DNA of 64,000 nucleotides from an uncultured Mollicutes bacterium (GTDB lineage Bacteria > Bacillota_I > Bacilli_A > RFN20 > CAG-826). Of the stretch, positions 5,053-59,819 are shown in pieces. Position 1 is the stretch's first letter; the number at the start of each line of letters is the position of its first letter. The stretch lies in the NCBI GenBank assembly GCA_900540395.1, contig UQFQ01000002.1, forward strand, positions 6,684 through 70,683, given 5' to 3'. Under the pieces are notes generated by a model that worked only from the letters and a program-made list of their open reading frames with translations, was not told where the DNA came from and did not search any database. A program made the translations under genes and the position numbers.

Positions 5053-5210
5053 TACACTTTTGTTAATTTGCTTTTATAAATTATAAAAATATAACCGATA
5101 ACACATAATTTAGTTAATTTGGTCACATTTATATAAAAATATTACCGATTGTATAGATTCCTTTGATTATTGTCTGCTTAATTGAGAAAATATGTATGAA
5201 AGGTAATATC

Positions 5211-5408
5211 ATGAATAAAATAGGTCAATTTGTTAAAGAAAAAAGAAAAGAAAATCATTTGAAACAAGAAGATTTAGCTTTATATGCTGGTGTTAGTACG
5301 AAATTTATTAGTCAATTAGAAAATGGAAAAGAAACACTTAAATTAGATAAGATAAATCAAGTTTTATCTATTTTTGATTATGAATTATCGCCTACAAAAA
5401 AGGATTAA
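5211..5408 (+). CDS. XRE-family HTH protein, HipB-like antitoxin/repressor
   Basis: MNKIGQFVKEKRKENHLKQEDLALYAGVSTKFISQLENGKE is a canonical HTH_3. It is the first gene of a tightly packed three-gene unit. The start is uncertain: in-frame candidates are 5163, 5196 and 5211. Confidence 0.75.
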   Translation: MNKIGQFVKEKRKENHLKQEDLALYAGVSTKFISQLENGKETLKLDKINQVLSIFDYELSPTKKD

Positions 5409-5411
5409 AGC

Positions 5412-5738
5412 ATGAAAAAAGCTAAAGTCTTTTATAATGATATTTTATGTGGTTATTTGACTGAAAATGATGATGGCTATATTTTTTACTACGTCGATGA
5501 GTATTTAAAAAAGAGCAATAGTAAAGCTATAAGTTTAACGTTGCCTCTTAAAGATGAACCATATCATTCAATGGAACTTTTTCCTTTTTTTGATGGCCTT
5601 ATACCTGAAGGCTATCTTTTTAACTTAGCAGTAAAAATATATAACATTAATCCGTTAAATAGATTTGAAGTTTTGCTTAAAACTTGTGCTGATGCAATTG
5701 GATGTGTTTCCTTAAAAGAGGATTTAGGTAATGAATAA
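5412..5738 (+). CDS. Stand-alone HipA N-terminal (couple_hipA) domain protein, HipS-like
   Basis: KVFYNDILCGYLTENDDGYIFYYVDEYL...FPFFDGLIPEGY matches the HipA N-subdomain pattern. It starts 4 nt after the HTH gene and overlaps the kinase gene by 8 nt. Confidence 0.75.
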   Translation: MKKAKVFYNDILCGYLTENDDGYIFYYVDEYLKKSNSKAISLTLPLKDEPYHSMELFPFFDGLIPEGYLFNLAVKIYNINPLNRFEVLLKTCADAIGCVSLKEDLGNE

Positions 5739-6681
5739 TCATAGGTGCTTATTTTGCGGAAGAAAATTAAACTCTGATTTAGAAGATAGTTATCATCGGC
5801 ATCTTTTTTGTATTAAAAAATTCTTTAATGTTAGTGCTTTTCCAGACACCTTACTTTTAGAAAATAATTTAGAAATTCTAGCTATTGATGAATTAAGAAA
5901 TCACTTATCTATTACAGGCGTTCAAAAGAAAATTTCTTGTAGCGTTAAAAGAGATAAGAAAACCAAAAAATTGTTTTTTGATACTGATAATTCTGAATTT
6001 ATTATTAAAACACCTGATTATGATATTCCAGATATTACCGAAAATGAACATTTTATAATGCTGTTGGCAAATGATATAGGCCTCGAAACTGTAGAAAATG
6101 GTCTTATTAAAACTAAAAATAATGGATATTTATATATTACAAAAAGAATTGATCGAGTGAGTGGAAAGAAGTTACCAATGGAAGATTTTTGTCAACTATC
6201 TTACAAGCTTACTGAATATAAATATCAAGGTTCTTATGAAAAATGTGTTAAAGAGATTATTGATAAATATTCTTCGAGAAAGCAATTAGATAAAATTCGC
6301 TTTTTTAACGTAATTTATTTTTCTTATGTTGTTGGAAACACTGATATGCATTTGAAGAATTTTTCTCTTTATGATGATGGAAGTGGCTTTCATTTAGCGC
6401 CTTTTTATGATCTTGTCTCATCGTATTTACTAGTCGGACAAGACGAGTTTGCTTTATCTTTAAATGGAAAAAGAAAGAAATTTACTAAAAATGATTTTAT
6501 AAAATTTGGTGAAAATATTGGTCTATCAAAAGAGTTAAGCATGAAAATTATAAAGTCTTTAAATGCTAAGATTGATTATGGCTTTAAAACATTGCTTCCT
6601 ACTTCTTTGATGAGTGAAAAACTTAATAAAAAGATGGAAGAATTAGTCAAAGAAAGATTAACAATTTTACATGCGGAGTAA
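5731..6681 (+). CDS. HipA-family Ser/Thr kinase core (HipT-like) with N-terminal Cys/His motif
   Basis: Motifs present are ITGVQKKIS (P-loop-like), GNTDMHLKNFSL (catalytic DxHxKN) and APFYDLVSS (Mg-binding D). The N-terminus CLFCGRKLNSD..HRHLFC is typical of Gram-positive HipA proteins. Confidence 0.8.
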   Translation: MNNHRCLFCGRKLNSDLEDSYHRHLFCIKKFFNVSAFPDTLLLENNLEILAIDELRNHLSITGVQKKISCSVKRDKKTKKLFFDTDNSEFIIKTPDYDIPDITENEHFIMLLANDIGLETVENGLIKTKNNGYLYITKRIDRVSGKKLPMEDFCQLSYKLTEYKYQGSYEKCVKEIIDKYSSRKQLDKIRFFNVIYFSYVVGNTDMHLKNFSLYDDGSGFHLAPFYDLVSSYLLVGQDEFALSLNGKRKKFTKNDFIKFGENIGLSKELSMKIIKSLNAKIDYGFKTLLPTSLMSEKLNKKMEELVKERLTILHAE

Positions 6682-19030: not shown

Positions 19031-19398
19031 AAAAAGATGGAACTAATTTAAAAATGTAAAGAGTGCTAAACTTAATTTAATTGAAAAAAATTATTAATAA
19101 GCAAAAGTGTTAATTTTTAAATCAACAGGTGTTGTTTTCAGCAATTCTGTCTTTTATTTGTCTAAATTTTTGCTATGACAAATATGACAATTGTTGAAGA
19201 AAGAAGATTTTTCAAAATATTTGCAAATCTAATACTTTTTAATTTTATTGAAAATTTTTTGAAATAAAAATTAAATTACTCAATTTTAAACACTATCTTT
19301 TTTGTTTTTTTATTCTTGGAGTCGTGTTGTTATTATTTTTTTGAACAAATAAAAAAATTTTTATTTCAAATTAAACAAATTAAAAGAGGGATTTAAGT

Positions 19399-20240
19399 AT
19401 GATGAAAAGAAAATTTTTAGCAGTAATTTTACCTATCATAGGTTGTGCAACTGTCGTTGGTAGTGGATTTAGTGCTTGGTATTTCGTGATACGGTTACAA
19501 CAGGCGATTCTGGCTCAACAGCTATTAATGTTGAAGTTACTGACGAAATTAAAGATGCATCAGGCACTCTTAGTGTAGATCCAACAGCTTCAACTATTAC
19601 GAATAAGTTTTTAATCTTAGATCAAGGCGGTCCTAAAAATGATAGTCTTGACTCAGGAATTATGTTTGGAGATGAAGGTGCTACCGAAACTACAGCAACT
19701 AGCGAAAATGCAGGAACTATCGTAAATAAATGGGATTTTACCGTTAAATACGAAGGAGATGGACTTACTCTTGGTGAACTTTATGATGCCGGGTTAAGAA
19801 TCAGAATTAATTTGACTATTGCAATTAAAGGTGATTTAGGAAGAAAATACATTACTTTCCAAGATCCAGTTCCAACAGTCAAAGTTACTCCATCAGGTTT
19901 GACTGGAACTGATGACCCAGTAACATTGACAGGCGAAAGCACTAGTCCTATTAGAAGTGCTAATTATATCATTACTGATGACCAAGTAAATCGTAGTGAA
20001 ACAACCGCCAGTTGGAGATTTGAACTTGGAGTAGATACTCTAAAGAAAGGAAACGATTATTCAAACGCTTTATTAAAATATCAACAACGTGTTTACGCTG
20101 ATAACACTTATAAAGGTGGTAAACCTGGTGATGAAGGCGAACCACTAACAATGAAAACTGATTTGATAAACGATGATGAAGATCCATCAAAAATTGTATT
20201 TTCAGTTATCGCTTACATTGAAGACGATACAACTAAATAA
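19399..20240 (+). pseudogene. TasA/camelysin-like secreted subunit with SipW-cognate signal peptide; 1-nt frameshift at about 19485/19486
   Basis: AAGAGGG precedes ATG 19399, which gives MMKRKFLAVILPIIGCATVVGSGFSAWYF. The frame then shifts by -1 into ORF 19476-20240 (..DTVTTGDSGSTAINVEVTDEIKDASGTLSVD). Restoring one G gives WYFGDTV. Compare TasA GGGTWAAFND...ASGTLDLS. Confidence 0.65.
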
Positions 20241-20258
20241 TTAATAAACAAACATTTC

Positions 20259-20294
20259 GTGTGGACTTACCTTTAAGATAAGTCCACACTTTTA
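20259..20294 (+). terminator. Strong hairpin plus T-tract between the TasA-like gene and the signal peptidase gene
   Basis: GTGTGGACTTA-cctttaaga-TAAGTCCACAC is followed by TTTT. Confidence 0.8.
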
Positions 20295-20318
20295 CAAAAC
20301 AAAAAGGGTATTAAATAA

Positions 20319-21377
20319 ATGAATGGCCAAGAAATACTAGGTAATGTTGCTTTTTATGTTTCAATTGCAGTTGTTATTGGCATGGCAATCATGTTTTCTA
20401 TACTTTTTGCTATTTATGGATACTATAAAATTAAACATATTAATTACGGACATGAAGATGCTCAATTAGAGAAAACTTTACGTAATAGATATAAAGAGAT
20501 TATAGAAAGAAATAGTGAAGAAGGACTTAAAACAAAAACAATTGTAGATAAAGACAAAGTAAATGAACCAGACTATGTTATGGTTCAAAATATGAGAAAC
20601 GTCAAAACATTTACTCTTGTTGGTGAAAAAGAAGTTGAAAAGCCACTCGAACCTAAAACTGTTTTAGAAGCAATATTTGAAGAGAAACGTAAGTCAAAGA
20701 AATGGAGAGTTGTCTCTAATGTTTTCTTTGCGATTTTTTATGTTCTTCTTCTAATCTTGCTTGGATTTTCAATAGCTTTTAAAGTTACAAATCAACAATT
20801 ATATTTTGGTAACTCTGGTCTTGTTGCAATTTACACTGGTTCAATGGAATCAGTGAATGACGAAAATGAATATATCAAAGAACAAGGTTTAGAAGCTGCT
20901 GAAAATCGAATCATGCAATATTCACTAATTGGTGTGGATAAAGTAACATCTCCAGACCAAATGGAGCTTTATAAGATTTATGGTTATCGTACTCCTGAAG
21001 GTAATTTAATTGTTCACCGTTTAATCAGAATTTACACAAATCCAGAAACAAATGTAACTTATTATACTTTTAGAGGCGATGCTAACTCTGATTCTTTATC
21101 TTTTGAACTTGTCTTAACCTTTGATGACATTGAATGTGTATATAATGGATTCCAGAACTTCGGACTTGGTGTCACAACAATTTACTTACAATCAAATATT
21201 GGTTTAATCGCAATTTTGGCTGCTTTCTTGTTCTTAATTACATATCAATCAACTGAACATTTTATTGAAGTCGCTTATGATAAACGTACTCAAGAAATTG
21301 CTAAAAAGATTGATGGAAAAGAATATATTTTAGATTTACGTAACAAGAAAATGAAAAAAGTGGAGGAGAAGATATGA
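20319..21377 (+). CDS. SipW-type (ER/archaeal-type, Ser-His) signal peptidase I with long N-terminal extension
   Basis: It has the catalytic boxes YTGSMES, IVHRLIRI and FRGDANSDS (compare SipW SGSMEP / HR / GDNN). There are three TM segments. It is 352 aa versus about 190 aa for B. subtilis SipW. Confidence 0.75.
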   Translation: MNGQEILGNVAFYVSIAVVIGMAIMFSILFAIYGYYKIKHINYGHEDAQLEKTLRNRYKEIIERNSEEGLKTKTIVDKDKVNEPDYVMVQNMRNVKTFTLVGEKEVEKPLEPKTVLEAIFEEKRKSKKWRVVSNVFFAIFYVLLLILLGFSIAFKVTNQQLYFGNSGLVAIYTGSMESVNDENEYIKEQGLEAAENRIMQYSLIGVDKVTSPDQMELYKIYGYRTPEGNLIVHRLIRIYTNPETNVTYYTFRGDANSDSLSFELVLTFDDIECVYNGFQNFGLGVTTIYLQSNIGLIAILAAFLFLITYQSTEHFIEVAYDKRTQEIAKKIDGKEYILDLRNKKMKKVEEKI

Positions 21378-22729
21378 TTTCTCTCCGTAAGACTTTAGTT
21401 ACATTACTTGCCCCATTAGGTGCAGCCACAATTATTGGAACAGGGTTTGCAACCTGGAGTTTTGGACTTAAGGAAACCGTAATAGCTGATCCGATAACAA
21501 ATGATGTAAATATTACAGCAGAAGTTACAAATGGCAACATTGAAATACGTACTTGGCCAAACTTATTAGTTTTTTCTGAAGGCACTCAAGGAAGATATAA
21601 CCTTTTTGATGGCATAAATTTTTATACTGATAAAAAAATTGTTCAAGGAAGAGATTTAATTGTTTCAGGAAATACCGCGGGACATTTATTAAGCCTTGTT
21701 TATAGTAATGTTAATAATGAAAATACGCTATATTTTTCTTGGAAAGAAAATGCAGATAGTAATTTACCAATTACTGGTGAACTAACCAATTTTCTAGGTT
21801 CTAATGCTACAGAAGAGGTCCCATATACAGGTACATGGACTGGAACAACTGTTTCTGAAAATCAACAAGTAAATGTTCAAGTAGTTCTTAACAATGATAA
21901 TAGCGGTTCAATTGAATTAAGTACTATTAGAAACCAAGAAACTGAAACTTATTCTTCAAGTTTCAAATATTCTGAAACTCAAAGTGGTACTACCCCTGAT
22001 ATTACAGTTACAGATAGCACTTTTTCTTTTAGATATAAATATGATAATCCTGATTTGATTGACGAAAATGCAACTGGATATCATTTAAACGTCAGGATGA
22101 AATTAGCTCTTGAAACAGAGCCACCTTATGGGTTTACATTTAATTATGATTCTGAGCATGGAACATTGATATATGAAACAGCAAATAAAGCTATTAATCT
22201 TGTTTTAACAAAATCGGGTAACAATTATTCACTTTCGGCAAACGTTAATAGTAATAGACTTGTATTTAATATCGTTGAGTTTCCACCATCAATTAGTGGA
22301 GAAGAATTTCCTAGTGGAACTTATGTCGGTCATACCAAAGGAAGTATTATACCATGTACTTTAGTAATTGGTGAAAACTATAGTGCAACTTTAGAAATTG
22401 GAAAAATGGATAGCTATTTGTCAATCATTGATAGTTTTACTTCACGTTGTGATAAAGATGGCTATTTTAATATTTTTGGCGACAATGACAATGAAGGATA
22501 CGCTGAAACGTCTCTTCATATTGGCATAGATAAATCTGGGTTAGCTGAAGACAATAAAGAAAGATATATTGATTTTACTTGTCAATTGGCTAACTATTTA
22601 CGTTATGCTTCACCAGAAGTTAAGCCTATTGATTATCAAAAATATTTAGGTCTTACGGCGGCTTTAATTTTAGGGAATTGGACATTTAAGATTGAGGTTT
22701 GCGCTGATTTTACTTCAATAAGAGGTTAA
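21374..22729 (+). CDS. Secreted 451-aa protein with SipW-cognate-type signal peptide
   Basis: The N-terminus is MISLRKTLVTLLAPLGAATIIGTGFATWSFG. It then reads ..DVNITAEVTNG, resembling AINVEVTDE of the upstream subunit. Its ATG overlaps the peptidase stop (ATGA). Confidence 0.65.
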   Translation: MISLRKTLVTLLAPLGAATIIGTGFATWSFGLKETVIADPITNDVNITAEVTNGNIEIRTWPNLLVFSEGTQGRYNLFDGINFYTDKKIVQGRDLIVSGNTAGHLLSLVYSNVNNENTLYFSWKENADSNLPITGELTNFLGSNATEEVPYTGTWTGTTVSENQQVNVQVVLNNDNSGSIELSTIRNQETETYSSSFKYSETQSGTTPDITVTDSTFSFRYKYDNPDLIDENATGYHLNVRMKLALETEPPYGFTFNYDSEHGTLIYETANKAINLVLTKSGNNYSLSANVNSNRLVFNIVEFPPSISGEEFPSGTYVGHTKGSIIPCTLVIGENYSATLEIGKMDSYLSIIDSFTSRCDKDGYFNIFGDNDNEGYAETSLHIGIDKSGLAEDNKERYIDFTCQLANYLRYASPEVKPIDYQKYLGLTAALILGNWTFKIEVCADFTSIRG

Positions 22730-22733
22730 GATT

Positions 22734-25700
22734 GTGTTTAGAAGATTTAAAGGTTTATTAGCATTATTTGGAGTTATTTGTGTTGCAGCTGTTGCCGGCG
22801 GAACAGCGATGTTTTATTTTGGTTATAATGTTCATGACGAAAAAACTATTACCAATGATTCCGAAGAAGCTGATGGTAGTGGCGTTTTTGCCGACAATAT
22901 TTTAGAAAACTATGAGTTCGGCGCAAAAACTGACTTAAACGAAACTTACACATATTATTTTTATCCATCCACTCTTTACATGAGTAATGAGTTTTTTAAT
23001 GCTAACACAAATCCTGAAGATATTTTTGGTTATAACGAAGTAATTTTAGATGATAACGGAAATCCAGTTTTAGTGGATGGGCAACCACAATATGAGATTG
23101 TTACAGAAGGTATTAGTGGTATTAATGCAAATGGAACTAAGTATGATACTTATTATTATTATTTAACGAATTATTTAAATAGCCAAACAGATTCTTATTT
23201 ATATGGAGCTGTTATTGAGCCTAATTATAACCATACAAATAGAGCTGGGTCGACTACTACACCAGGCAATGTTTTTGCTTATGGTATTGGTTTTCGAAAA
23301 GATAGTGATAATGGCGATGATTATCACTTGCAAGGAATTGATGTTTCAATTAAAGACCCCTATATAGTCAATAACAAAAATACTGTCGCACTTGATGCTT
23401 TACTTAAAGACAATCTTAATATGGACTACTATGGCGATAAAAGAAAAGGTGGCACCAGTTATGATGAATATTATGATTTTATCTATGATCAAGGACTGAC
23501 AAGTGTTAATTATAACGATGAGGTACTTTCTCCTCAATACAATGATGATTTGCACGGCATTTCTTTAGAAATCACTACTGAAGGAGAGAGTCTTATATAT
23601 AATTTTGCTAACTATTATCAACGTGGTTCGAGTTCTAGAATTGATGGTAACACGCTTAGAGCTTCTGGCCATATAAACTATGACTATGGTTGGGAATTAG
23701 GTATGTGGGGCAATGATTATCTTGATCGTATTAATGATGGTACCCAATTAGTCGATCATTCTCCTTTTTATTATGATAGAGATAATATCAATATTTGTTC
23801 AATTAGTTTGGATGAAATATCAAGAAACCCTGAATTAGGAACGTGGTTTACTAGTTCAAATGACGGCAACGATGTTACTTTAGCTTTTACAAGTTTTAAT
23901 GGTAGTCAAGGCACTGGTTATATAGCAGATAGTGGTGGTTATAGACGAACTACTTTTACTTATCGAAAAAATGATGAGACTATTACTTTTAATACTTCAG
24001 AACATAATATTGAAGGTAGTCTTACAATTAGTGCTTCTAACCCTCTGGATCAAATGATAAATCGTGCTCAATATCGTAATGATCGTTTTGGCTTTTGGAC
24101 ATCTTTTTACGATTGGGACGACGATAGCAATAAAAACTTTAAAATCGAAAATTCAGCTAGTCGATATTTACCAATTAAAATTACTGTTAATGGTAATTTG
24201 ACTCCTGATGATATGGCTAAAGTCATTCCAACACTCTCGGCTTCAATGCCAGATGATAACATGTGGTTTGACTTTACTTCCAATGTTTGGACATATGTTC
24301 CTACCGATGATAATGGTAAATATAACTTTAATGTAAGGGAATATACGACTGGAACTGGCGGATTTACAGCAAAGGATATTACTTATATTTTTGATATTAT
24401 GCAAAATCCTTCTAAATATGCAGACAAAGATGGAAATATAAGATTATTCCCTGTATTTAGCAATGGTAAAAATAAGGGAAACGATGCTGAAAACGGTGGA
24501 GCTGATGCTATACAAGCTTCATTCACTTATAAAGATGGTTTTAGTCCAACAATTAATGATGATTTATTGCCATCTTCTACAAAAATGACTTATTCAACGT
24601 TTGATTATCAATATGGTGATTTCTATAACTACCCTGTAAACTATGCAGTTTTGAAAAATGTCGAAATTACTAAAAATAAATATGAACAGTTAACAATTCG
24701 TATTGATACAACTTATACTAATTCCCGGTGGTCAGGAAATTGGATTGATTTATATACTTTTAGTGGTAATGCTTTAAATTCATTTATTTCAACTTATGGT
24801 GAAGGACTTTATACATTCTATTTATTTGTTGGAGCTAGGGCGACAAATGAAGATCGCGGTGACACTCCTTTTCCAGATGTGAATGGGCAAAGTTTAATAG
24901 AACGTATTGTAAATTACAATGTGACAGGGAACGAACTCCATGATAAATATCTTTTACCACTTTCTGTTAATAACGATGGATCAATTGGTGTTGGTGGAGT
25001 AAATAATGTTTCGGAGAGAGCTGGATATAAATATGCCTATATTGATAATTTTGGATTAAATACTGGTCCAAGAGTACGTCCAGTTGCTCTTGCTATCGAA
25101 AAAGTTACTAATTTAAGACTTGTTTCTGATATTCCAATTAAGGAGGATTCTAATGGTAATCCATCAGTAGATCAAGATTGGGGCGATATCGATAATAATC
25201 TTGAACAAGGTTTATTAAACGCCAAAAACTTTACTATAGCAGATGAAGTTTACGGCATTAATGATCCGACGACTTATGAAAATGGCTTGACACAAGATGA
25301 TTTAGATGAAAGTAAAAGATTGGACACAAATAACCCATACATTTATGTAATTCAAAATGCTGATTTTAGATTTGTAAACAATCTTTACTTCCAAATCAGA
25401 TTCTCTAATTCATATATTAATAACGCTATGAATGTTGTGACTGATTATAGCGGTGTCGAAGACACAGATGAAACTCCAAAATATGTAGCTTATTCTATAA
25501 GTGGACAAATTATGACTTTCAAATTTCAAGATAGTAAAGATGATGATGTTTTTATTAGTAATGTTTCTGCTGAAGGCGTTTCTGCTGAAGGCGGCACAAG
25601 TAAAAGACAAGGATTTAAACTTAAGGATTATAATGCAAGAGGAATTTATGATATTCTTTTAGTCTCAACTGGTACTACAGGCGGCAGACAATATTACAAC

Positions 25701-26225
25701 ATGTATATCAATCGTCATACAAATAGTTTCATTAAATTATTCTATGGAAATCCAGGAACATTTAGATTTAACGGAACTGGTGCTGGAGAAGATGGTAATA
25801 TCTTCGTTTCGCATAAAATACCTAGCGAATTACGTGATGATAGAAGTGATTCCTATCAAATGAGAGAAATAAACTCAACTCTTTTATGGAATGGACAAAC
25901 TTATTTAGGCGAATATTTAACGACTAGTACGACGGGTATTCGTTATTCTCGTGTTGGAGATAATGAAGAGCAAGTAGATCCTTCTTCTGATGCTTCTTTA
26001 TATGCAGCTATAAGAGATAAATGCCGTTTAACCCCAGGCGAAGATAATGTTTATAAAATTATAGATGCTGTTACTGGAAGAGTAGTTGCTTACTATAATA
26101 GTGGTGTAGGAAGAATATTTACTAGCGAAGGATCAACTGGTAGTGGTGATAGTAGTGATGCAATTAACTTATTCACTATTATGAAGAACTACGTACTTTA
26201 TATTGACCCTTCCCCTGTTCAATAA
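22734..26225 (+). CDS. Secreted 1163-aa N/D/Y/G-rich protein with SipW-cognate-type signal peptide
   Basis: The N-terminus is MFRRFKGLLALFGVICVAAVAGGTAMFYFG. The GTG start lies 4 nt after the previous stop, with AGAGG upstream. I recognise no catalytic motif. Confidence 0.65.
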   Translation: MFRRFKGLLALFGVICVAAVAGGTAMFYFGYNVHDEKTITNDSEEADGSGVFADNILENYEFGAKTDLNETYTYYFYPSTLYMSNEFFNANTNPEDIFGYNEVILDDNGNPVLVDGQPQYEIVTEGISGINANGTKYDTYYYYLTNYLNSQTDSYLYGAVIEPNYNHTNRAGSTTTPGNVFAYGIGFRKDSDNGDDYHLQGIDVSIKDPYIVNNKNTVALDALLKDNLNMDYYGDKRKGGTSYDEYYDFIYDQGLTSVNYNDEVLSPQYNDDLHGISLEITTEGESLIYNFANYYQRGSSSRIDGNTLRASGHINYDYGWELGMWGNDYLDRINDGTQLVDHSPFYYDRDNINICSISLDEISRNPELGTWFTSSNDGNDVTLAFTSFNGSQGTGYIADSGGYRRTTFTYRKNDETITFNTSEHNIEGSLTISASNPLDQMINRAQYRNDRFGFWTSFYDWDDDSNKNFKIENSASRYLPIKITVNGNLTPDDMAKVIPTLSASMPDDNMWFDFTSNVWTYVPTDDNGKYNFNVREYTTGTGGFTAKDITYIFDIMQNPSKYADKDGNIRLFPVFSNGKNKGNDAENGGADAIQASFTYKDGFSPTINDDLLPSSTKMTYSTFDYQYGDFYNYPVNYAVLKNVEITKNKYEQLTIRIDTTYTNSRWSGNWIDLYTFSGNALNSFISTYGEGLYTFYLFVGARATNEDRGDTPFPDVNGQSLIERIVNYNVTGNELHDKYLLPLSVNNDGSIGVGGVNNVSERAGYKYAYIDNFGLNTGPRVRPVALAIEKVTNLRLVSDIPIKEDSNGNPSVDQDWGDIDNNLEQGLLNAKNFTIADEVYGINDPTTYENGLTQDDLDESKRLDTNNPYIYVIQNADFRFVNNLYFQIRFSNSYINNAMNVVTDYSGVEDTDETPKYVAYSISGQIMTFKFQDSKDDDVFISNVSAEGVSAEGGTSKRQGFKLKDYNARGIYDILLVSTGTTGGRQYYNMYINRHTNSFIKLFYGNPGTFRFNGTGAGEDGNIFVSHKIPSELRDDRSDSYQMREINSTLLWNGQTYLGEYLTTSTTGIRYSRVGDNEEQVDPSSDASLYAAIRDKCRLTPGEDNVYKIIDAVTGRVVAYYNSGVGRIFTSEGSTGSGDSSDAINLFTIMKNYVLYIDPSPVQ

Positions 26226-26246: not shown

Positions 26247-26276
26247 AAAGCCCGGTCTTGTTTGACCGGGCTTTTA
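26247..26276. terminator. Bidirectional terminator between convergent genes
   Basis: AAAGCCCGGTC-ttgtt-(t)GACCGGGCTTT is flanked by A-runs and T-runs. Confidence 0.8.
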
Positions 26277-26281: not shown

Positions 26282-28039
26282 CTAATTCACCTTTAATGTA
26301 TACGAAGAATTTAAAGTGTAATATTTAATTCCTGGCTCAGAAGGTGTTTCTTGTAAACACCAGCCTGGATAACTGTAATCAGCATTCTGTATAATTCCAT
26401 ACTCATCAAAAACTATTAATAAAGAATTACTACTGTCTCGAATTTGGTAAGTATTAGCTTCATCATGATAGAAGTATTTTAAAGTGCTTTCTTCTTTTTT
26501 AGTTACCTCATCTATTAAAGCATTAATAGAAGAACCATCACAATTTAAATAGTTTGAATAAAAATTGCTAATCACTCCTTGAAGCATTTCTTTTGCTTGG
26601 TTTTTAGTATAGGTTTGGGTTTGGTCTTTGATATCAAGACTTTCTCCGTTTACTATAGTAGTTAAAGTGTAGTTATCTTCGCTTTGATTGTAAGTTAATT
26701 TATCAGTAGATGTATTAATGGTTTCTTCCTCAATGTAATAGATTTCGTTAGTTAACTCAAAAGAGTAGATTTCATTAATATAGGAATAATTTAAAGAGGT
26801 TTGCAGTGAAGTTGTTGTAGAACGTATATCATAAATATCTAATTCTAGACTTTCTAAGTTATCAAAAAACACTGAAGAAGAAATAAAGTTATTTTTATTT
26901 ATATCTTCTTTGTTTATTTCTATAAGATGGTTATTAGAAGATTGATTAGATAGATTTAAAGATACTGGAATTAAGATTGCAAGAAGTGCAACTAAAATTA
27001 CACCACCAACTATTAAACCTTTTGTTGAAAAAAGTTTAGATATTTTAATTTCTTCTTTATTGGAATCTTCTTTGTTATCACTATCATTTGATTCTGTAAC
27101 TGTATAAGTGGTTGAATCGCTCTCTTCTTTTGTCTCTTCTTCTTTAGAAGCGTCTTCATTAGATTCATCATTTGCTTCTTCAATTTGATCAACGTCGTTT
27201 TCTTTAATGTCTTTGTCATCTTCATCTTTATCTTTAGATGGCTCAGAAATTTTATTTTCTTCTATATTTCCTTCTTTTGTTGTTTCTTCTGTTTTATTTT
27301 CTTCTAAAGAAGAAGTGTCTGATTCGTTCTTAATTGAATCTTTTTCGCTTTTTTCACTTGATGATGTTTCTTCGCCTTTTTCTTCTTTTTCTACAATTTC
27401 AGCTTCTAGTGTTTCTAGTTTTTCACCTTTTATTTCAGCTTTATTAGTTGCTTTAATTTCGCCATCTATTATTTCAGGATTATCAATAACTTCTTTAGAG
27501 TTTTCTTCTTTATCTACTAAAGAAACTCCATTTTCTTCAATAGTTGTAGGGACAGCGTTTTCTACAATTTTATCTTCGTTTTTAACTGAAATCTCTGCAA
27601 AACCCGAATCTTTTGTTGTGTTAGAAGATATTTGTTCTTCAACTTGAACTTCTTTTTTCTCTTCTTTTAAAGGGAGTTCGATTACAGAAGAAGTGGTTTG
27701 AGTTTCTTGGACTTCTTTTTTATTTTCATCTTTTTTCTTACTAGTAGAAGGAGTTTTCCTCTTTGAGCTAGTTTTAGATTTTGTGTTCTTTTTCTTAGAT
27801 GAAGAAGTGGTTTTCTTTTTTGAAGAAGTTGCTTTTTTCTTTGTTGATTTAGAAGATTTATTGCTACTTGTTTTCTTTTTAGTAGAAGTAGTCTTTTTCT
27901 TCTCTTCCATACTATCTTTTTTCTCGTTAGTAAAATCTATTTCTTTAAATTGATCGCCATCAACAAAAACTTTGGTGGAGCCTTCATCTTCACCAACGAC
28001 TTCTTCAATGATAATTTTAGTTCTTCTAACTTTAGCCAT
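26282..28039 (-). CDS. Single-pass membrane protein with a low-complexity basic (K/S/T) then acidic (E/D/K) cytoplasmic region and a ~230-aa external domain
   Basis: The 585-aa ORF has a KKKTTSTKKKTSSNKSSKSTKKK.. tract, then E/D-rich tracts, then the TM LIVGGVILVALLAILIPVSL. Confidence 0.55.
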   Translation of the reverse strand: MAKVRRTKIIIEEVVGEDEGSTKVFVDGDQFKEIDFTNEKKDSMEEKKKTTSTKKKTSSNKSSKSTKKKATSSKKKTTSSSKKKNTKSKTSSKRKTPSTSKKKDENKKEVQETQTTSSVIELPLKEEKKEVQVEEQISSNTTKDSGFAEISVKNEDKIVENAVPTTIEENGVSLVDKEENSKEVIDNPEIIDGEIKATNKAEIKGEKLETLEAEIVEKEEKGEETSSSEKSEKDSIKNESDTSSLEENKTEETTKEGNIEENKISEPSKDKDEDDKDIKENDVDQIEEANDESNEDASKEEETKEESDSTTYTVTESNDSDNKEDSNKEEIKISKLFSTKGLIVGGVILVALLAILIPVSLNLSNQSSNNHLIEINKEDINKNNFISSSVFFDNLESLELDIYDIRSTTTSLQTSLNYSYINEIYSFELTNEIYYIEEETINTSTDKLTYNQSEDNYTLTTIVNGESLDIKDQTQTYTKNQAKEMLQGVISNFYSNYLNCDGSSINALIDEVTKKEESTLKYFYHDEANTYQIRDSSNSLLIVFDEYGIIQNADYSYPGWCLQETPSEPGIKYYTLNSSYTLKVN

Positions 28040-38134: not shown

Positions 38135-40873
38135 ATGCAAAGAAAAATTACTTTAGTTATGAGTTGGGTGATTAGCTTAATTTTAGTTTTGCTTTTAACG
38201 CAAAATAATGAAAAAGCGAGCGACCCAAGTATTTTAAGCACAAAATCTAATTTAGTCTGTCAAAGACACGATGATTTAGAACTAGATAGCAAGAATGCAA
38301 GCAAGAATGACATAATACTTACAAGTCAAAGTCCTTTAGATAAAAAGTTGTTGTCATTTTCTTATTACAAAATTTCTTTCAACGGCAATAATTTTTATGT
38401 TGCAGATTTAACTGAAATTAATCAAAATGAGTCGATTAATCCTGTTGCCGAAATTAAGCTTATCGAAAATTGCCAGTATTATAATAATTTTGGTGAGTAT
38501 CAAAGTTTAAGACAAGAAAAATTTGTTTTAGAAGTGATTAATGTTTTAAAAGAATCTTTGCACGTCCAAAAAAATTTTTCAATTGTTAGTAATAGTGATG
38601 CAGAAATGATTATAAGCAAATCTATACCTATTGATGTGAGTGATGAGAAATATTATAAAATTTTAAGTTCTATTAATTTTGAATATAATTATAGGCAAAC
38701 TGTAGCAAGGGATGAAAATGAAATTGAACCCATGAGTACGAGTGATTCTGATGAAAACACAAATGAACAAGGCCCATTGGATTATTATTTAGCAAATACT
38801 TCTAATGGCTCAAATACAGATACTATTACAGTCGGAACGGAATCGCAAGATGGTATAGCCTATGCTTCCGATGATTCAATAGTTAAGTTAATTCCTAAGT
38901 CTTATTTTAAAATTAACGGGACGCATACTGGAGCCGGGTCTGAATGGGGCTATTTGATAAAAACTTATGATGATATTGGTAATAATAAAAATAGCAGTTT
39001 AATTATTTATGATATTGAACAAGAAAGATTTACTACAATAAGTAATGAACTGACTGAGATAACTGTGGTCGTCCATAAAAATTATAAATATTATTATGAT
39101 GAAGATAGAGTTGTTGGCGATATTGATAATACTTATGCTTTGGCTAACCCTGTTTATAAAGAAAATATTAGGTATTTTCAGCCTAATAATGTCGAATCAT
39201 CTAATAAATATTTAAATCCTGGTGATTCTGGTTACGACCCAATAGATGATTATGGATATTCTTTTGGAACTACATCGGCTTATTATAAGGGTCGCGGAAA
39301 GAATTACAATAATTATACCGTATTACCAACTATTCTCGGACTCGCTTCAACTGTATTACAGGCTGCTCTTATTCCTTCAGGGATACCGATAGGAATAAAT
39401 ATTGCTGTAAGCGTTTTAGGGAGTTTAATTACTGATTCCATTATTTCTGCAACAACGAATTTGATTAGAGAGCAAAATAATTCTAATTTATTAACAGATT
39501 CAAACGATTTTAATATTGCTTCTACAACTTTTTTTAATAATTATCTCAATTATGACTATATGCGAAGAGATAAAAAATTACTTAAAGAAGTAAATTTTTT
39601 GCTTTCTAATGGTGATGGGAATTTTTCTTACAATGAATTAGAAGAAGCGCTACTTTTTAAAGATAATTCATGCAAAATTTCATATAAAACAAGTCTTGTG
39701 GCTAGTGAAAAAAGCGATGATTATAACGCGATTATTGCTCATAATTTGAAAGTTGACGTTATTAACGATAATACTTGGCGGCCTTTTCATTGGATGCCTG
39801 AATTTATTGGAACAATCAGCGGCTCATGGGCTTATTCTTTTGGACAAGAATTTACTCCTAAAACTTATAATCTGCTTGCGAATGGTAACTATTTTAATAC
39901 TGCTTTCAGCAATTCACAAAAGCAAAAATTTAAATTTAAACCTGAGAATAGCGGTGAATACTATCTTTATTTTAAAGAATTACCACCATTTATAAAGGTA
40001 GATGTAAAACAAAACAATTTAGTTATTCAAAGTTTTGAGGTTGGTTATTCTTCAAAAAAAGACGCTTGGGGCAATAATGTTTTTTATAAAAAGAAGCACA
40101 CTTATAAAGAGCTCATTAGGCTAAGTAAAGGGTCGGAATATATATTTGAGATTTATGCTAATAACGGCAATCTAAATGTATCTGGGTCTTGCGATATAGG
40201 TATTTCTTTTAATGGTGGTTTAATCAGCAATTCTTTTTTAAATTCTAATAACAAGAGTACGACAAAGAGCATTACTTATAATAAAGAAAATCAAATATTG
40301 CAATTTAATCCAAGTGTTGATGGCGGTTACTTATTTTCAACATCTTCAAATCAAACATCGTCTAATTTTGGAACATGTATTACACTATTTGACAAAAATT
40401 TTAATATAGTTTTTTCAAGTTATGATTTATCGGGTGAATCATGTGCATGTTTTTATGCCCATCTTAAATCTGGTCAAACATATTATGTTTCTACAAGGAA
40501 TTATAATTATTACGATTCAAATAATTTTTCACTGGTAATAATGAATGGAACGCCTTTACCAGAAATAAGAGGGACAATGATCAATGCTGGCTTTAATATG
40601 GTTTTTAAAGGTGCTGTACGAAATTCCTTCTTGCTGTATCAATCTGGTTCCTTAAATGGCAATATTCGCTTTGAATATTTAGGCGAAAATGTTGGCATCA
40701 AGCCATTTATTTACTTTAATATTGTTAACGTTAACGGCTCCATTGTTTATTCGAATAGTTTTAATTATACAAAAGATTTTAAATACAATTTTTCCTCAGG
40801 ATTACCATATTTAATAAATGTTTATTCAACTTCAAGTAATACCTACGATTATATTAATTTATTTTTGAATTAA
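38135..40873 (+). CDS. Secreted/anchored 912-aa protein with a central Gly/Ile/Ser-rich hydrophobic segment and C-terminal PPC-like beta-sandwich repeats
   Basis: The N-terminal signal/anchor is VMSWVISLILVLLL. A central segment reads TVLPTILGLASTVLQAALIPSGIPIGINIAVSVLGSLI. The C-terminal modules resemble pre-peptidase C-terminal domains (..GEYYLYF.., ..LKSGQTYYVSTRNY..). Confidence 0.5.
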   Translation: MQRKITLVMSWVISLILVLLLTQNNEKASDPSILSTKSNLVCQRHDDLELDSKNASKNDIILTSQSPLDKKLLSFSYYKISFNGNNFYVADLTEINQNESINPVAEIKLIENCQYYNNFGEYQSLRQEKFVLEVINVLKESLHVQKNFSIVSNSDAEMIISKSIPIDVSDEKYYKILSSINFEYNYRQTVARDENEIEPMSTSDSDENTNEQGPLDYYLANTSNGSNTDTITVGTESQDGIAYASDDSIVKLIPKSYFKINGTHTGAGSEWGYLIKTYDDIGNNKNSSLIIYDIEQERFTTISNELTEITVVVHKNYKYYYDEDRVVGDIDNTYALANPVYKENIRYFQPNNVESSNKYLNPGDSGYDPIDDYGYSFGTTSAYYKGRGKNYNNYTVLPTILGLASTVLQAALIPSGIPIGINIAVSVLGSLITDSIISATTNLIREQNNSNLLTDSNDFNIASTTFFNNYLNYDYMRRDKKLLKEVNFLLSNGDGNFSYNELEEALLFKDNSCKISYKTSLVASEKSDDYNAIIAHNLKVDVINDNTWRPFHWMPEFIGTISGSWAYSFGQEFTPKTYNLLANGNYFNTAFSNSQKQKFKFKPENSGEYYLYFKELPPFIKVDVKQNNLVIQSFEVGYSSKKDAWGNNVFYKKKHTYKELIRLSKGSEYIFEIYANNGNLNVSGSCDIGISFNGGLISNSFLNSNNKSTTKSITYNKENQILQFNPSVDGGYLFSTSSNQTSSNFGTCITLFDKNFNIVFSSYDLSGESCACFYAHLKSGQTYYVSTRNYNYYDSNNFSLVIMNGTPLPEIRGTMINAGFNMVFKGAVRNSFLLYQSGSLNGNIRFEYLGENVGIKPFIYFNIVNVNGSIVYSNSFNYTKDFKYNFSSGLPYLINVYSTSSNTYDYINLFLN

Positions 40874-40887
40874 CTCTGCGGTTTGAT

Positions 40888-41526
40888 ATGAAGAAATTAA
40901 ATCCAATTTATAATTCCATATTTTATATTCTTAGTTCATTATCTTTATTGACGAACTCATTCCTTAATTTTGGAGCTTATATTTTTGATAAATCCTTTAA
41001 TGATGTAGGAATTGAAAATAAAACAATTATTGTCTTTTTGATAATTTCTAGTTTGTTTATTGCTTTTTCATTAGGCCTTAGTGTCTATGAAATATATAAA
41101 TTTATAAAAAAAGAAAGAATAGTTGATACATTTAACTATTTTACTATCGGATATTTTATTACTATCTTGTCATACACGATTACTTCCTATTATTTTACAA
41201 GTAGTGTTTATTATGGAATAGTGTTATTTATTATTTTATCTTTATTAATTGCGTTACCTTTTTTAATAAAACTATTTGATAAAAAAGACTTTATAGATAT
41301 TCCTTTTTGGATTTATACAATCAGTTATCTAGCAATGTTAATTTTTATTGTTTGTTTTGGAATTGCCATAGCAATAAAAGGATTCTCTTTAGATTTAGAA
41401 AAATCTTTAAGCGGAGCAGAAATATCCTATCTTGTTGGAGGAATTATTGGTTTAATTGCTTCCATATATACTTTATTCTATCTGCCATATAAGTGGTTTA
41501 GCGATTATAGTAATAAACGGAACTAA
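40888..41526 (+). CDS. Polytopic membrane protein (212 aa)
   Basis: It has 5-6 hydrophobic helices and starts 15 nt after the 912-aa gene. Confidence 0.5.
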   Translation: MKKLNPIYNSIFYILSSLSLLTNSFLNFGAYIFDKSFNDVGIENKTIIVFLIISSLFIAFSLGLSVYEIYKFIKKERIVDTFNYFTIGYFITILSYTITSYYFTSSVYYGIVLFIILSLLIALPFLIKLFDKKDFIDIPFWIYTISYLAMLIFIVCFGIAIAIKGFSLDLEKSLSGAEISYLVGGIIGLIASIYTLFYLPYKWFSDYSNKRN

Positions 41527-41705: not shown

Positions 41706-43445
41706 ATGTATATAAATATTTTAGATGGTTTAAGCACAGAACTTATTATTGGAGTAGTTGTTTCTTGTGTTTTTGCTTTATTTTTATTAATTCTTGTTGG
41801 TTATCTAGCTTTAAGTAAGTTTTATTTAAATAAAAAGAAATGTCGAAAGCAACTTGATATCTATCAATCTAAGTATGAATATCTTCATGCTTTACTTACT
41901 GGGCAAGATAATTCTTATATTCAAAGACTTGAAATTATTAGTCGTACTAATCTTTTATATAGTGATATACATGCAAGTTATTTTAAAAGAAGTAAAGAAA
42001 TTAGAGATACTACTGATCAAAAGTATCAAGATATTCTTTTTCAACTTCAAAACTACCTTGAAGAAAATAAGACTCGTGAGTTTAAGTACTATTTAAAAGA
42101 AAATTTACCAATTTTAAAACAATATGAAGATGCAGTTAACTCTTTAAATAATGATTTAGTTAATGTTATTCGACCTGAAGAAGAAGCTCGTCAAATGAGC
42201 TTAAATGAAAAAGAGAAATTAAGAGATGTTAAATCTAAATTTAATTTTAATGAAAACGATTTAACCTTTGTAGCTTCATCCTTCCAACAAGTATTTGCTA
42301 AAATCGACCGTAAGTTTAATGATTTTGATGATTTAGTAGAAAATGCAAACTATGATGATGCTAAAAACATTATTCCTGAAGTTGATAAAGTTTTAAATTT
42401 ACTTGATAAATTAATTGATGAAATTCCACCTTTAGTTAAAGAAGTAAATGAGAATATTCCTTCTAAAGTTAAAAAACTAAGCGAAGAATATGAACGCATT
42501 ATGAAAGAAGGTAAACCTTTAACTCATTTACAAGTTGAAGTGCTTGTAAGTCAAATTGATGAAGCGCTTGATACTGAAAGAAGCAATATTAAAAATCTAG
42601 CGGTTTCGCACATTAAAGAAGAAACCGAAGAGATTAATCGAGTAATTGATGAACTATTTGAAAAATTTAAAAAAGAAGAAGATGCTTTTATTGAATTTAA
42701 CGAAAAGAAAGACCCTGTCATTAATGAGTTCTTAAATTACGATAAAGAACTTGTAAAGATTAATAACAATATAACTAGATTTAAAAAGATTTATATAATT
42801 GATGAAGAACACACCAATGAATTAACTAATATTCGTAATAAAGTTGAAGAAGTTAGTAAGGATAAACGTCGTTTAGATCAATATATGCGAAATATTGAGC
42901 CATATCCTTATAGTGAACTTTTAGATAAATTAAGATTATTAGAAAATGGAACAAGAGAAATTAGCGGAAGAATTAATTCTTATAATGAATATTTAATTTC
43001 ACTAAAAACTGATAGTGAAACTGCCTTTAAAAACATTCGTACAAAATACGATTTATTAAAAGAACACGAAAAGATTATTCGTGATTTTAAAGTTGATAAA
43101 TATGTTGATTACTTTAAAGATCGTTTTGATGATTGCTATGCTTTAATTGATGATATTTCTAAGATTTTAGCAAAAGTTCCAATTGACGTTAATCAAGTTA
43201 ACCAATATCAAAGAGAATTAAATGATAAAACAAATAATCTTGTAAAAGAGATTCAAGATTTAGATAATTATAAACGTTTAGCAAGTGAAGATATTCTTCT
43301 TGTTAATCGTGATCGTATGAAGTTTGCAGAAATTAATAACTTAATCTCACAAGCAGAAACATTATATTTAAGTGGAGACTTTAAGAGTGCTTATGATATT
43401 AGTGAACAAGCACTCGAAAAATTAAATTTTAGGGACAAACAATGA
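41706..43445 (+). CDS. ezrA: Septation ring formation regulator EzrA
   Basis: It has a single N-terminal TM plus about 540 aa of coiled coil. Its 579-aa length and its position upstream of cysteine desulfurase-thiI and next to rpsD match other Bacilli. Confidence 0.8.
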   Translation: MYINILDGLSTELIIGVVVSCVFALFLLILVGYLALSKFYLNKKKCRKQLDIYQSKYEYLHALLTGQDNSYIQRLEIISRTNLLYSDIHASYFKRSKEIRDTTDQKYQDILFQLQNYLEENKTREFKYYLKENLPILKQYEDAVNSLNNDLVNVIRPEEEARQMSLNEKEKLRDVKSKFNFNENDLTFVASSFQQVFAKIDRKFNDFDDLVENANYDDAKNIIPEVDKVLNLLDKLIDEIPPLVKEVNENIPSKVKKLSEEYERIMKEGKPLTHLQVEVLVSQIDEALDTERSNIKNLAVSHIKEETEEINRVIDELFEKFKKEEDAFIEFNEKKDPVINEFLNYDKELVKINNNITRFKKIYIIDEEHTNELTNIRNKVEEVSKDKRRLDQYMRNIEPYPYSELLDKLRLLENGTREISGRINSYNEYLISLKTDSETAFKNIRTKYDLLKEHEKIIRDFKVDKYVDYFKDRFDDCYALIDDISKILAKVPIDVNQVNQYQRELNDKTNNLVKEIQDLDNYKRLASEDILLVNRDRMKFAEINNLISQAETLYLSGDFKSAYDISEQALEKLNFRDKQ

Positions 43446-53607: not shown

Positions 53608-53733
53608 TTTCAAAAAATACCATTTATATCATTTTTTTGAACATTTTTGAGTAAAAAATGATTTCGAAAAAAGTTTTTTAAAAATTTTGAAATAATGTGA
53701 AATATTTTACACCCTTAAGTTGTCTTTATAGGT

Positions 53734-53955
53734 ATGAAGACAAATATTGCAGTTTTAACCATCTTCAAGATGGTAATTAAGAAAGAAAGATTTAATACTA
53801 ATGACCTTGTAAAGATAACAGGATGCTCTAAGAGAACTTGTTTTCGTTACATCAAAGACATTAAGGAGTTCATTAAGGAAAATACTCGTTTTGAGTTAAA
53901 ATACTCAGCTCGAATTAAAAGTTTTGTCCTTGTTGAAGCTAGACAAAAACACTAG
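53734..53955 (+). CDS. Small (73 aa) winged-HTH protein
   Basis: FNTNDLVKITGCSKRTCFRYIKDIKEFI resembles an HTH_11/DeoR-type N-terminal domain. Confidence 0.5.
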   Translation: MKTNIAVLTIFKMVIKKERFNTNDLVKITGCSKRTCFRYIKDIKEFIKENTRFELKYSARIKSFVLVEARQKH

Positions 53956-57751: not shown

Positions 57752-57762
57752 GGTGATTCTAT

Positions 57763-58935: not shown

Positions 58936-58958
58936 TTATTATTTACTAAAAACAATAA

Positions 58959-59814: not shown

Positions 59815-59819
59815 TCAAT

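Follow-up and report, generated by a model that had tools for sequence, protein, structure and literature searches.

In Bacillus subtilis (tapA-sipW-tasA) and B. cereus (sipW-tasA-calY), a dedicated signal peptidase of the endoplasmic reticulum (ER)/archaeal type is encoded between its own substrates; those of tapA-sipW-tasA are a major fiber subunit and an accessory subunit, with a conserved signal end that carries an aromatic residue at P2'. In Clostridium perfringens, the operon sipW-bsaA-bsaB-bsaC (CPE0514-0517) provides a SipW-type peptidase together with the 70-kDa protein BsaC and two smaller matrix proteins that are related; the cargo signal peptides are presumed to be cleaved by SipW, and a disordered N-terminal segment of BsaA is the donor strand (PMC11580942). 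The principle of a private peptidase with its own cargo is thus already known, as is a large accessory cargo protein in a SipW operon (BsaC). Here we describe an operon at positions 19399-26225 of the window, a 64,000-nt stretch of contig UQFQ01000002.1 (assembly GCA_900540395.1, an uncultured Mollicutes bacterium; G+C of the window ~29%). The same DNA is represented by a 138-kb scaffold of a human-associated metagenome (ERZ28576595 scaffold_75). The four plus-strand genes of the operon, abutting or overlapping, encode a first cargo protein (gene 1), a peptidase (gene 2), and cargo proteins of 451 and 1163 amino acids (aa) (genes 3 and 4; Table 1). The most probable explanation, with a probability of about 0.62, is that the operon is a module for secretion and processing, specific to a lineage of uncultured, low-GC gut Bacilli, and that its cargo builds an exposed surface structure.

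Three co-encoded proteins carry one private signal, and for this reason a dedicated peptidase with cognate cargo is the right kind of system to compare. Like the bsa operon, the locus has four genes, a SipW-type peptidase, smaller proteins and one large accessory protein. The first-pass annotation of this DNA held a TasA-like system with a very large accessory cargo to be undescribed in this lineage; a SipW operon with such cargo had already been reported with BsaC (PMC11580942). Unlike the bsa operon, where BsaA and BsaB are remote TasA homologs and BsaC has a vWA domain, the window cargo matches neither TasA, TIGR04090, vWA nor other models; the proposed major subunit comes first, followed by a hairpin; the peptidase has an extra N-terminal span and a linker; the signal consensus is another one; and the large cargo protein reaches 1163 aa. 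Like tapA-sipW-tasA and sipW-tasA-calY, it places an ER/archaeal-type peptidase gene between the genes of its apparent substrates, and like TasA these end their signal in a conserved sequence and are aromatic at the proposed P2'.

A diverged SipW/SEC11-type peptidase and an operon-restricted signal

The gene 2 product contains the boxes GSMES, VHRLI and RGDANS, and the Ser/His signal-peptidase boxes read earlier in this 352-aa protein (GSMES, HRL, GDANS) are indeed there. Its identification as SipW stood at the level of the superfamily (S26B) but not at that of the equivalog. Against NCBIfam, it matched the SipW model NF046067 at E 2.9e-7 (30.2 bits, curated cut-off 190) and TIGR02228 at E 0.015 (15.2 bits, curated cut-off 51.85); a Pfam scan of the protein gave no match. 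The family comprises 117 clusters at 90% identity, all unannotated, and among 30 diverse members NF046067 matched 27 (best E 2.9e-15) and TIGR02228 matched 22 (best E 1.4e-11), both at E <= 0.01. The proposed TIGR02228 search thus returned the window protein and many relatives, but below the curated cut-off in the case of the window protein. When the family profile was compared with PDB sequences, it found SEC11C (E 1.4e-6) and SEC11A (5e-6) and no other protease, in an alignment that covers the VHR and GDxN boxes and is weaker at the SM(E) box.

The residues T173-G-S175-M176, H233-R234 and G253-D254-A255-N256 are invariant in 30 sequences having 26-78% identity to the window protein. Judged by these alignments, the catalytic arrangement is Ser-His-Asp, of the ER/archaeal S26B type and not the bacterial Ser-Lys type. 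In this, the protein resembles SEC11 (PDB 7P2P, 7P2Q) and not LepB; unlike SEC11, which belongs to a multi-subunit complex and serves general secretory proteins, its gene shares an operon with those of three putative private substrates, and the protein has further membrane segments. Compared with the tapA-sipW-tasA peptidase, it reaches only 30 bits where the SipW equivalog cut-off is 190. The gene 2 product appears, on sequence grounds, to be a real but strongly diverged SipW/SEC11-type peptidase, a member of the superfamily and not a SipW equivalog.

Hydrophobic segments lie at about residues 5-36, 128-158 and 285-312 of the peptidase, with the catalytic domain at about 166-285. A basic linker (residues 35-140) and C-terminal tail contrast with an acidic catalytic domain, a distribution that places this domain outside the cell. 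In B. subtilis SipW the catalytic domain lies between N-terminal and C-terminal membrane anchors; segments 128-158 and 285-312 flank it here in the same manner, and segment 5-36 with the basic linker is extra, adding one membrane span and a cytoplasmic linker of ~100 residues. An invariant motif, Y..YK.K.I..G.ED, directly follows the first span. Some distant relatives (P0186, P0194, P0203 and P0208) are 430-530 aa long and have a C-terminal cytoplasmic extension of 100-200 residues, and in one cluster (P0165) the peptidase appears to continue, by fusion or otherwise, into a motif-bearing N-terminus encoded downstream (..VVVTLVGTGFCSWR..).

The second component of the system is the signal. The three neighboring plus-strand cargo genes encode N-termini that read ..CATVVGSGFSAWYF, ..GAATIIGTGFATWSFG and ..VAAVAGGTAMFYFG, so the common, unusual signal-peptide end noticed at the outset is present as quoted, and profile matches cover it. 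Each signal consists of KRK, ~15 hydrophobic residues, and then G-x-G-F-(S/A)-x-(W/F)-(Y)-F. In the logo, Gly occupies position -2 in 84 of 85 sequences and position 0 in 85 of 85, with Ser between them, followed by Phe (83), Ser/Ala, any residue, Trp (77), Tyr and Phe (83); gene-4-type proteins have the variant ..SFG(L/M)SYFYF. The three cargo families were collected separately (235 proteins for gene 1, of which 120 were listed, 111 for gene 3, and 74 representatives for gene 4). Profile-profile alignment with hhalign related gene 1 (alignment A3) to gene 3 (A4) at E 1.1e-11 over the first ~90 residues, the signal supplying most of the score, and gene 4 to gene 1 (E 2.3e-9) and to gene 3 (E 6.9e-6) over only the first ~35 residues.

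The distribution of the signal was evaluated in 45 loci, obtained by scanning one genome per species with a peptidase alignment of 12 closer sequences. The motif G[FTY][SAGC]x[WF]x[FL] occurs within the first 110 residues of 87 of 1425 open reading frames (ORFs), and all 87 sit in a same-strand gene run that contains the peptidase gene; elsewhere in the loci it matched once in 163,507 residues. The motif was derived from the same sequences, and the independent evidence is its location specificity only. The sharing of the signal is far beyond chance. Signals of the gene 1 family have a mean pairwise identity of 90.5%, against 38.8% for the mature parts; in the gene 3 family the values are 78% and 44%. 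A signal more conserved than the protein it exports is the reverse of ordinary Sec signals, and is expected if a dedicated enzyme reads it.

The signals had been likened to the SipW-dependent signals of TasA and camelysin. An analogous G-rich end is found, but class membership is not: TIGR04088 (19-bit cut-off) gave no match at E <= 10 for the three 61-residue N-termini or the full proteins, and the TasA positive control scored 38 bits (E 1.2e-9; 9e-155 with the TasA model). The signal is accordingly analogous to the SipW-cognate class without belonging to it, which again sets the operon apart from tapA-sipW-tasA. With hhalign, GSGFSA is set on GGGTWA of TasA, in an alignment that is not significant (E 0.028). 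TasA is cleaved between TWA and AF. By analogy, cleavage here would most likely follow G-F-(S/A), with Gly at -3, Ser, Ala or Gly at -1, and Trp or Phe at P2'. Under this proposal the peptidase-adjacent proteins of the 45 loci would combine small residues at -3 and -1 with an aromatic P2', a likeness to TasA by functional analogy only. Substrates with an aromatic P2' are poorly cleaved by LepB, and TasA, with Phe at P2', is cleaved by the dedicated SipW (PMC10269814).

Cargo proteins, a gene 1 frameshift and strain variability

The mature cargo proteins, as far as sequence and predicted structure can tell, are not TasA or camelysin, and the description of the operon as encoding three proteins of that style did not survive HMM scans, hhalign or Foldseek, none of which found a relation between mature domains. 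PF12389 (Peptidase_M73), the search proposed for this purpose, matched neither the window proteins nor 37, 36 and 28 members of the three families, and the same holds for NF046066, TIGR04090 (BsaA) and the TasA models. Pfam and NCBIfam scans of the same set found no family match at all; the one exception, a match of a single member out of 36 to Adeno_knob, at E 3e-4 and under the cut-off, was put down to chance. Profiles of the gene 1 and gene 4 families gave no match to PDB sequences. In hhalign, the gene 1 profile aligned with TasA in the signal only (E 0.028, probability 1.8%), and the gene 3 profile gave E 0.44. The motif ASGTLSVD is present in the first protein as reported. The pattern (I/V)N(V/I)..EVT(D/N), thought to be common to the first and the 451-aa protein, fits the latter (VNITAEVTN) but not the former, where INVEVTD has no two-residue gap.

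A model of mature gene 1 made with AlphaFold2 (AF2) from a 37-sequence alignment has a mean predicted local distance difference test score (pLDDT) of 87.1 and a predicted template modeling (TM) score of 0.83. It is an acidic beta-sandwich with two short helices; the first 21 residues, with pLDDT below 50, are predicted to be disordered. Foldseek comparison of this model with the PDB gave a best E of 7.8e-3 and TM of 0.17-0.25, and TasA was not in the best 50 matches listed, so that the suggested comparison with the TasA jelly-roll yielded a confident model without TasA among its listed neighbors. The gene 3 model (pLDDT 76) had no structural neighbor in the PDB or BFVD, where only noise at TM <= 0.25 was returned; scattered matches to Gram-positive pilins (RrgB, FimA) belong to this noise and were given no weight. 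By HMM, hhalign and Foldseek, then, the predicted mature proteins appear unrelated to the jelly-roll of tapA-sipW-tasA.

Genes 1 and 3 retain some similarity when the signal is removed, weak but collinear: the N-terminal portion gives E 1.3e-3, and a C-terminal motif, NxL(L/R)(K/R)Y..KP, gives E 1.8e-4. Both models end in a helix and then a long terminal strand. This suggests, without establishing it, that the two are distant paralogs. None of the 111 gene 3 homologs is annotated; in most genomes this position is held by a protein of about 205-275 aa, and in the window clade large insertions have extended it to 451-568 aa. Gene 4 has only 74 representatives among 1.84 billion proteins. Behind its signal come a conserved module, an insert that varies, and a C-terminal portion of ~720 aa that is again conserved; its likeness to genes 1 and 3 is limited to the signal. 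The mature forms of all three cargo proteins are acidic and lack LPXTG as well as any C-terminal anchor. Other known routes to the surface were considered and rejected: a type IV pilin/prepilin-peptidase system (no short leader with G↓F..E), a sortase-LPXTG pilus (LPXTG and C-terminal anchor absent from the cargo), and a lipoprotein (no lipobox, the Cys of ..IGCATV.. being mid-helix).

The first 21 residues of mature gene 1, although modeled as disordered, carry a conserved alternating strand motif, I-x-V-x-V-T-D/E-E, in which Glu20 is invariant. The donor strands of TasA and BsaA are likewise conserved yet disordered N-terminal segments (PMC9674648, PMC11580942), and by this analogy we infer that the gene 1 segment is a candidate donor strand.

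Gene 1 of the window is itself disrupted. The frame that opens at ATG 19399 reads MMKRK...SAWYF, then leaves the frame and meets a stop 59 codons after the ATG; a different frame, within a mechanical ORF at 19476-20240, encodes the body (DTVTTGDSGST...IEDDTTK). Intact alleles read TGG TAT TTC GGx GAx, the codon at the site being GGx for Gly, or AGT for Ser, and the window reads TGG TAT TTC G-T GAT. Since intact alleles carry one more base there, the window gene has suffered a 1-nt deletion. The first protein, previously described as a single ORF of ~280 aa, does have its N-terminus and its body, but not in one continuous frame; the earlier reading "G(D)" had silently repaired the deletion. Signal and body share one frame in 36 of the 36 homologs aligned in A3, and among the 120 of 235 homologs listed the signal is intact in those that cover the N-terminus. 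The truncated 254-aa ORF (P0229) was called on nine contigs, among them one from an independent assembly by Logan (L002) and scaffolds from SAMEA2452120 and SAMEA2452121, which are two different samples, and the frameshift is therefore not an artefact of a single assembler. The mutation is recent, because the body is otherwise open. As the deletion disconnects the signal, the gene 1 subunit of the window strain is probably not exported. Programmed -1 frameshifting at U UUC G (tRNA-Phe re-pairing on UUU, to give ...WYF-RDTV...) is formally possible; mutation is preferred because there is no stimulator and all intact alleles are one base longer. In another species-level metagenome-assembled genome (MAG), a gene 1 homolog (locus L020, 9228-9990) has an in-frame TAA (..CKYSI*EDDYTT..) with the frame open afterwards, which may be a second, independent disruption or else an error of the MAG.

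Comparison of near-identical strains with the window as reference revealed how unevenly the operon varies. In L003, the neighboring family-2 glycosyltransferase (GT2) is 99% identical and the peptidase 100%, the gene 1 signal 90% but its mature part 33% (with no blastn match), gene 3 99%, gene 4 81%, and the convergent 585-aa gene beyond the operon 42%. In L054, the flanking NUDIX, DUF5662 and GT2 genes are 93-99.5% identical and the peptidase 98.6%, mature gene 1 26%, and genes 3 and 4 47% each. In L055 and L057, the values are 94% for the peptidase, 44% for mature gene 1, 99% for gene 3, 95% for gene 4 and 38% for the convergent gene. Across strains, flanks of 93-99.5% and a peptidase of 94-100% thus enclose a mature gene 1 of 26-44%, and gene 3 is at 99% where gene 4 is at 81-95%, or else both are at 47%. 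The latter case suggests that genes 3 and 4 interact, since they were replaced together as a cassette. Divergent cargo alleles inside conserved flanks and beside a conserved peptidase, with the signal preserved, fit exposed components that are immunodominant or targeted by phage and maintained by recombination, and the pattern as a whole fits a surface structure under diversifying selection.

All 45 loci are in MAGs of uncultured gut bacteria, labeled Bacilli, Bacillales, Mollicutes, Firmicutes, Candidatus Enterosoma, Candidatus Caccosoma or Anaeroplasmataceae. Eleven operon contigs (L010, L011, L013, L016, L017, L020, L022, L024, L025, L028 and L038) come from misnamed "cleanbin" MAGs that bear names such as Faecalibacterium prausnitzii, Bacteroides uniformis, Alistipes, Hallerella and Prevotella, bins evidently mislabeled or contaminated. 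The commonest gene order is gene 1 - peptidase - gene 3 - gene 4; variants have gene 1 - gene 4 - peptidase - gene 3, or 2-5 tandem small paralogs with one ~720-aa protein. The lineage is probably the GTDB order RF39, which we take to include Ca. Enterosoma and similar operon-bearing genera, a placement not given by NCBI taxonomy. Species of RF39 are predicted to be mostly walled, possibly spore-forming, and to have reduced genomes (PMC10868615).

A proposed exposed surface structure and its alternatives

The proposed sequence of events is as follows. The three co-encoded proteins would enter the Sec pathway through their one private signal, which the co-encoded membrane peptidase (ER/archaeal-type Ser-His-Asp, with its extra N-terminal span and basic ~100-aa linker) would, by analogy with SipW, remove. 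Cleavage after G-F-(S/A) would parallel TWA↓AF in TasA, whose aromatic P2' is thought to make it a poor LepB substrate. The released proteins would then assemble into an exposed surface structure, in which gene 1 may provide the abundant, strain-variable subunit, gene 3 a possibly related minor subunit, and gene 4 a large distal or anchoring component. The abundant role is proposed for gene 1 because it has its own ribosome binding site (RBS) and is followed by an attenuating hairpin. The operons tapA-sipW-tasA and sipW-bsaA-bsaB-bsaC are the templates for these roles (PMC9674648, PMC10151520, PMC11580942). Archaeal TasA-like bundling pili and threads (AbpA, Saci_0406), which are chaperone-free donor-strand filaments of Sec-exported subunits processed by signal peptidase (PMC9245690, PMC9715654), offer the mechanistic template for a fiber, but have no detectable similarity to the cargo in sequence or fold, and assembly by this route is entirely conjectural here.

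Several observations weigh against this explanation. The peptidase scores far below both curated cut-offs (30 versus 190 and 15 versus 52 bits), and the site of cleavage and its dependence on this peptidase are argued by analogy. No cargo protein resembles any known fiber subunit in sequence or predicted fold, and the homology of the mature parts of genes 1 and 3, at E 1.3e-3 once the signal is removed, is weak. Hypervariability fits any exposed protein and not specifically a polymer. Finally, the proposed major subunit is frameshifted in the window, so that the structure is either dispensable or not built in this strain.

Some of these points speak for an alternative in which the dedicated peptidase and private signal are real and the cargo consists of independent secreted or surface proteins, such as adhesins, enzymes or binding proteins, with a common processing route but no common fiber or coat. 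The cargo shows no similarity to known polymerizing subunits, and gene 4 has nothing but the signal in common with genes 1 and 3; the window strain has lost gene 1 and kept genes 2-4 intact; and in C. perfringens the SipW-operon cargo BsaC leaves the cell as a monomer (PMC11580942). This alternative is nonetheless considered unlikely, if the most credible of its kind. One to several small, possibly paralogous proteins with exactly one large protein form a very stable combination in 45 genomes; the hairpin and separate RBS of gene 1 are typical of a stoichiometrically dominant subunit; its N-terminal strand motif is conserved in spite of its predicted disorder; and the joint exchange of genes 3 and 4 (47% each in L054) suggests that their products interact.

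Far less probable is that the hydrophobic N-termini are uncleaved signal anchors, with the peptidase-like protein acting only in regulated shedding or as a non-catalytic partner. The hydrophobic stretch with GFSAWYF, ~24 residues, would suffice for a transmembrane helix with an aromatic belt, its conservation exceeds what is usual for cleaved signals, and oligomers of C. perfringens BsaA are membrane-anchored (PMC11580942). The invariant catalytic Ser, His and Asp argue instead for an active protease, the invariant Gly at -3 with Ser, Ala or Gly at -1 of the proposed cleavage site fits the -3/-1 rule, and known SipW-cognate signals, which are similarly conserved, are cleaved. That the cargo consists of true, diverged TasA/camelysin (Peptidase_M73) homologs with a TIGR04088-class signal, making this a TasA fiber system in a new lineage, is the least probable alternative and is essentially excluded at the level of detectable homology: the likeness of the signal ends (GSGFSA paired with GGGTWA), the operon logic of tapA-sipW-tasA and sipW-bsaABC, and an ASGTLSVD-like motif speak for it, but TIGR04088, TasA, BsaA and PF12389 models match neither the window proteins nor their 37, 36 and 28 relatives, the TasA control scores well with TIGR04088 and the TasA model, the profile aligns with TasA in the signal only, and the confident gene 1 model has no TasA among the PDB matches listed.

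Within the favored explanation of an assembled surface structure, a more specific and quite tentative proposal is that the operon encodes a previously unseen Gram-positive surface filament of the abundant, uncultured RF39-like gut Bacilli, a chaperone-free, sortase-independent heteropolymer. Gene 1 would be its antigenically variable shaft, polymerized through the conserved N-terminal strand; the invariant residues Glu20, Asn and Lys212 could hold this strand in place in the manner of the BsaA isopeptide. Gene 3 would be an adaptor and gene 4 (~130 kDa) a tip or anchor. Export would be licensed by the private signal and the SipW-like peptidase, whose extra cytoplasmic linker would couple processing to assembly. 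If this were true, cassette replacement and on/off loss (the window frameshift and the TAA of L020) would amount to evasion of immunity or phage.

New here are the peptidase subfamily, which has an additional span and linker, goes unseen by Pfam and falls short of the NCBIfam cut-offs; the consensus of the signal; the three unannotated cargo families; the lineage; and the cassette-like hypervariability of the cargo. In the literature searched, no description of the peptidase subfamily, the signal, the cargo or their variability was found, and searches on SipW in RF39, Tenericutes, Acholeplasma or Erysipelotrichia, and on TIGR04088, gave nothing relevant. TIGR04088, TIGR02228 and Pfam overlook the entire system. 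The SipW principle thereby comes to cover a further peptidase subfamily, another consensus of the signal and three cargo families not seen before, and the signal motif is a simple sequence rule for finding cargo. Uncultured Bacilli of the RF39 type are widespread in the gut and have reduced genomes; an operon conserved across the lineage, composed of entirely unannotated families and showing the allele replacement typical of major surface antigens, offers N-terminal peptides for metaproteomics, antigens for studies of immunoglobulin A coating, and candidate phage receptors.

Operon layout, neighbors and other features of the window

The layout given by the first-pass annotation, with overlapping or abutting genes and a hairpin after the first, agrees with the coordinates and the folding energy. 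Genes 2 and 3 overlap by ATGA (21374-21377), and the GTG start of gene 4 follows the gene 3 stop after a 4-nt gap. The hairpin after gene 1 (20259-20289, then UUUU) has a folding energy of -17.2 kcal/mol (z -3.73); a simple terminator scan did not pick it up. A hairpin with differing stem sequences occupies the same place in the closer loci L003, L005, L006, L007, L035 and L045 (-20 to -25 kcal/mol) and is absent from more distant loci. A second hairpin, beyond gene 4, likely marks the operon end and serves as bidirectional terminator.

Table 1. Features of the operon, in window coordinates
Feature	Position	Strand	Remarks
Shine-Dalgarno-like GAGGG	19386..19390	+	8 nt 5' of the gene 1 ATG; read from the sequence
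Gene 1 signal-peptide segment, MMKRKFLAVILPIIGCATVVGSGFSAWYF, 29 codons	19399..19485	+	Translation; near-invariant in family alignment A3
Gene 1 frameshift site, GT	19486..19487	+	Signal and body split by a 1-nt deletion
Gene 1 body, 250 aa + stop, DTVTTGD...IEDDTTK	19488..20240	+	Candidate major strain-variable secreted subunit
Stem-loop, 11-bp main stem, then UUUU	20259..20293	+	Terminator- or attenuator-like; gap between gene 1 and peptidase
Gene 2, 352-aa putative divergent SipW/SEC11-type signal peptidase	20319..21377	+	
Gene 2 catalytic codon, Ser175	20841-20843	+	
Gene 2 catalytic codon, His233	21015-21017	+	
Gene 2 catalytic codon, Asp254	21078-21080	+	
Gene 3, 451-aa cargo, signal MISLRKTLVTLLAPLGAATIIGTGFATWSFG	21374..22729	+	Profile matches to genes 1 and 4
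Gene 4, 1163-aa cargo, signal MFRRFKGLLALFGVICVAAVAGGTAMFYFG, GTG start	22734..26225	+	No recognizable domain
GC-rich 11-bp hairpin between gene 4 end and convergent 585-aa gene	26247..26274	.	Likely operon end and bidirectional terminator

The neighbors of the operon are genes for NUDIX, DUF5662, GT2, ribosomal protein S4, EzrA, ThiI and ferritin. These are chromosomal housekeeping and envelope genes, for which reason the operon is not regarded as a mobile element, and an origin from phage or plasmid was rejected. The region 5' of gene 1 (19031-19398) is an unusually long (368 nt), very AT-rich non-coding stretch, of which ~80 nt are ~85% conserved in L003 together with the signal-coding part of a gene whose body is replaced there; its promoter-like matches are limited to weak sigma-70-like ones. 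The convergent gene on the minus strand (26282-28039) encodes a 585-aa protein with an N-terminal half of low complexity, rich in Lys, Ser, Thr and Glu, one hydrophobic segment and a C-terminal domain, and has no Pfam match. Its product is as variable as those of the cargo genes, with 38-88% aa identity in near-identical strains versus 93-99.5% for the flanks, and may be another exposed surface protein or be functionally tied to the operon. Between this gene and GT2, some strains have an extra 559-aa ORF (L003, 9566-11245; L055, 9934-10436) that is absent in the window.

Elsewhere in the window, a sigma-70 region-2 protein (51090-51794) is followed by proteins of 607 and 1154 aa (span 51051-57751), the latter with only a weak Flg_new_2 match, and then by three 390-aa ORFs (57763-58935, 61247-62455 and 62493-63665) and one of 414 aa within 57763-63665, without Pfam match. 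The whole region from 51051 to 63665 may be another cluster of surface proteins with paralogs. Proteins of 912 and 212 aa that have no Pfam match are encoded at 38135-41526, directly upstream of ezrA (41706-43445). At 5196-6681, a HipB-like helix-turn-helix protein (5196-5408), Couple_hipA (5412-5738) and a HipA_C kinase (5731-6681) form a three-part toxin-antitoxin module, with a gene for a RelB-family antitoxin further upstream.

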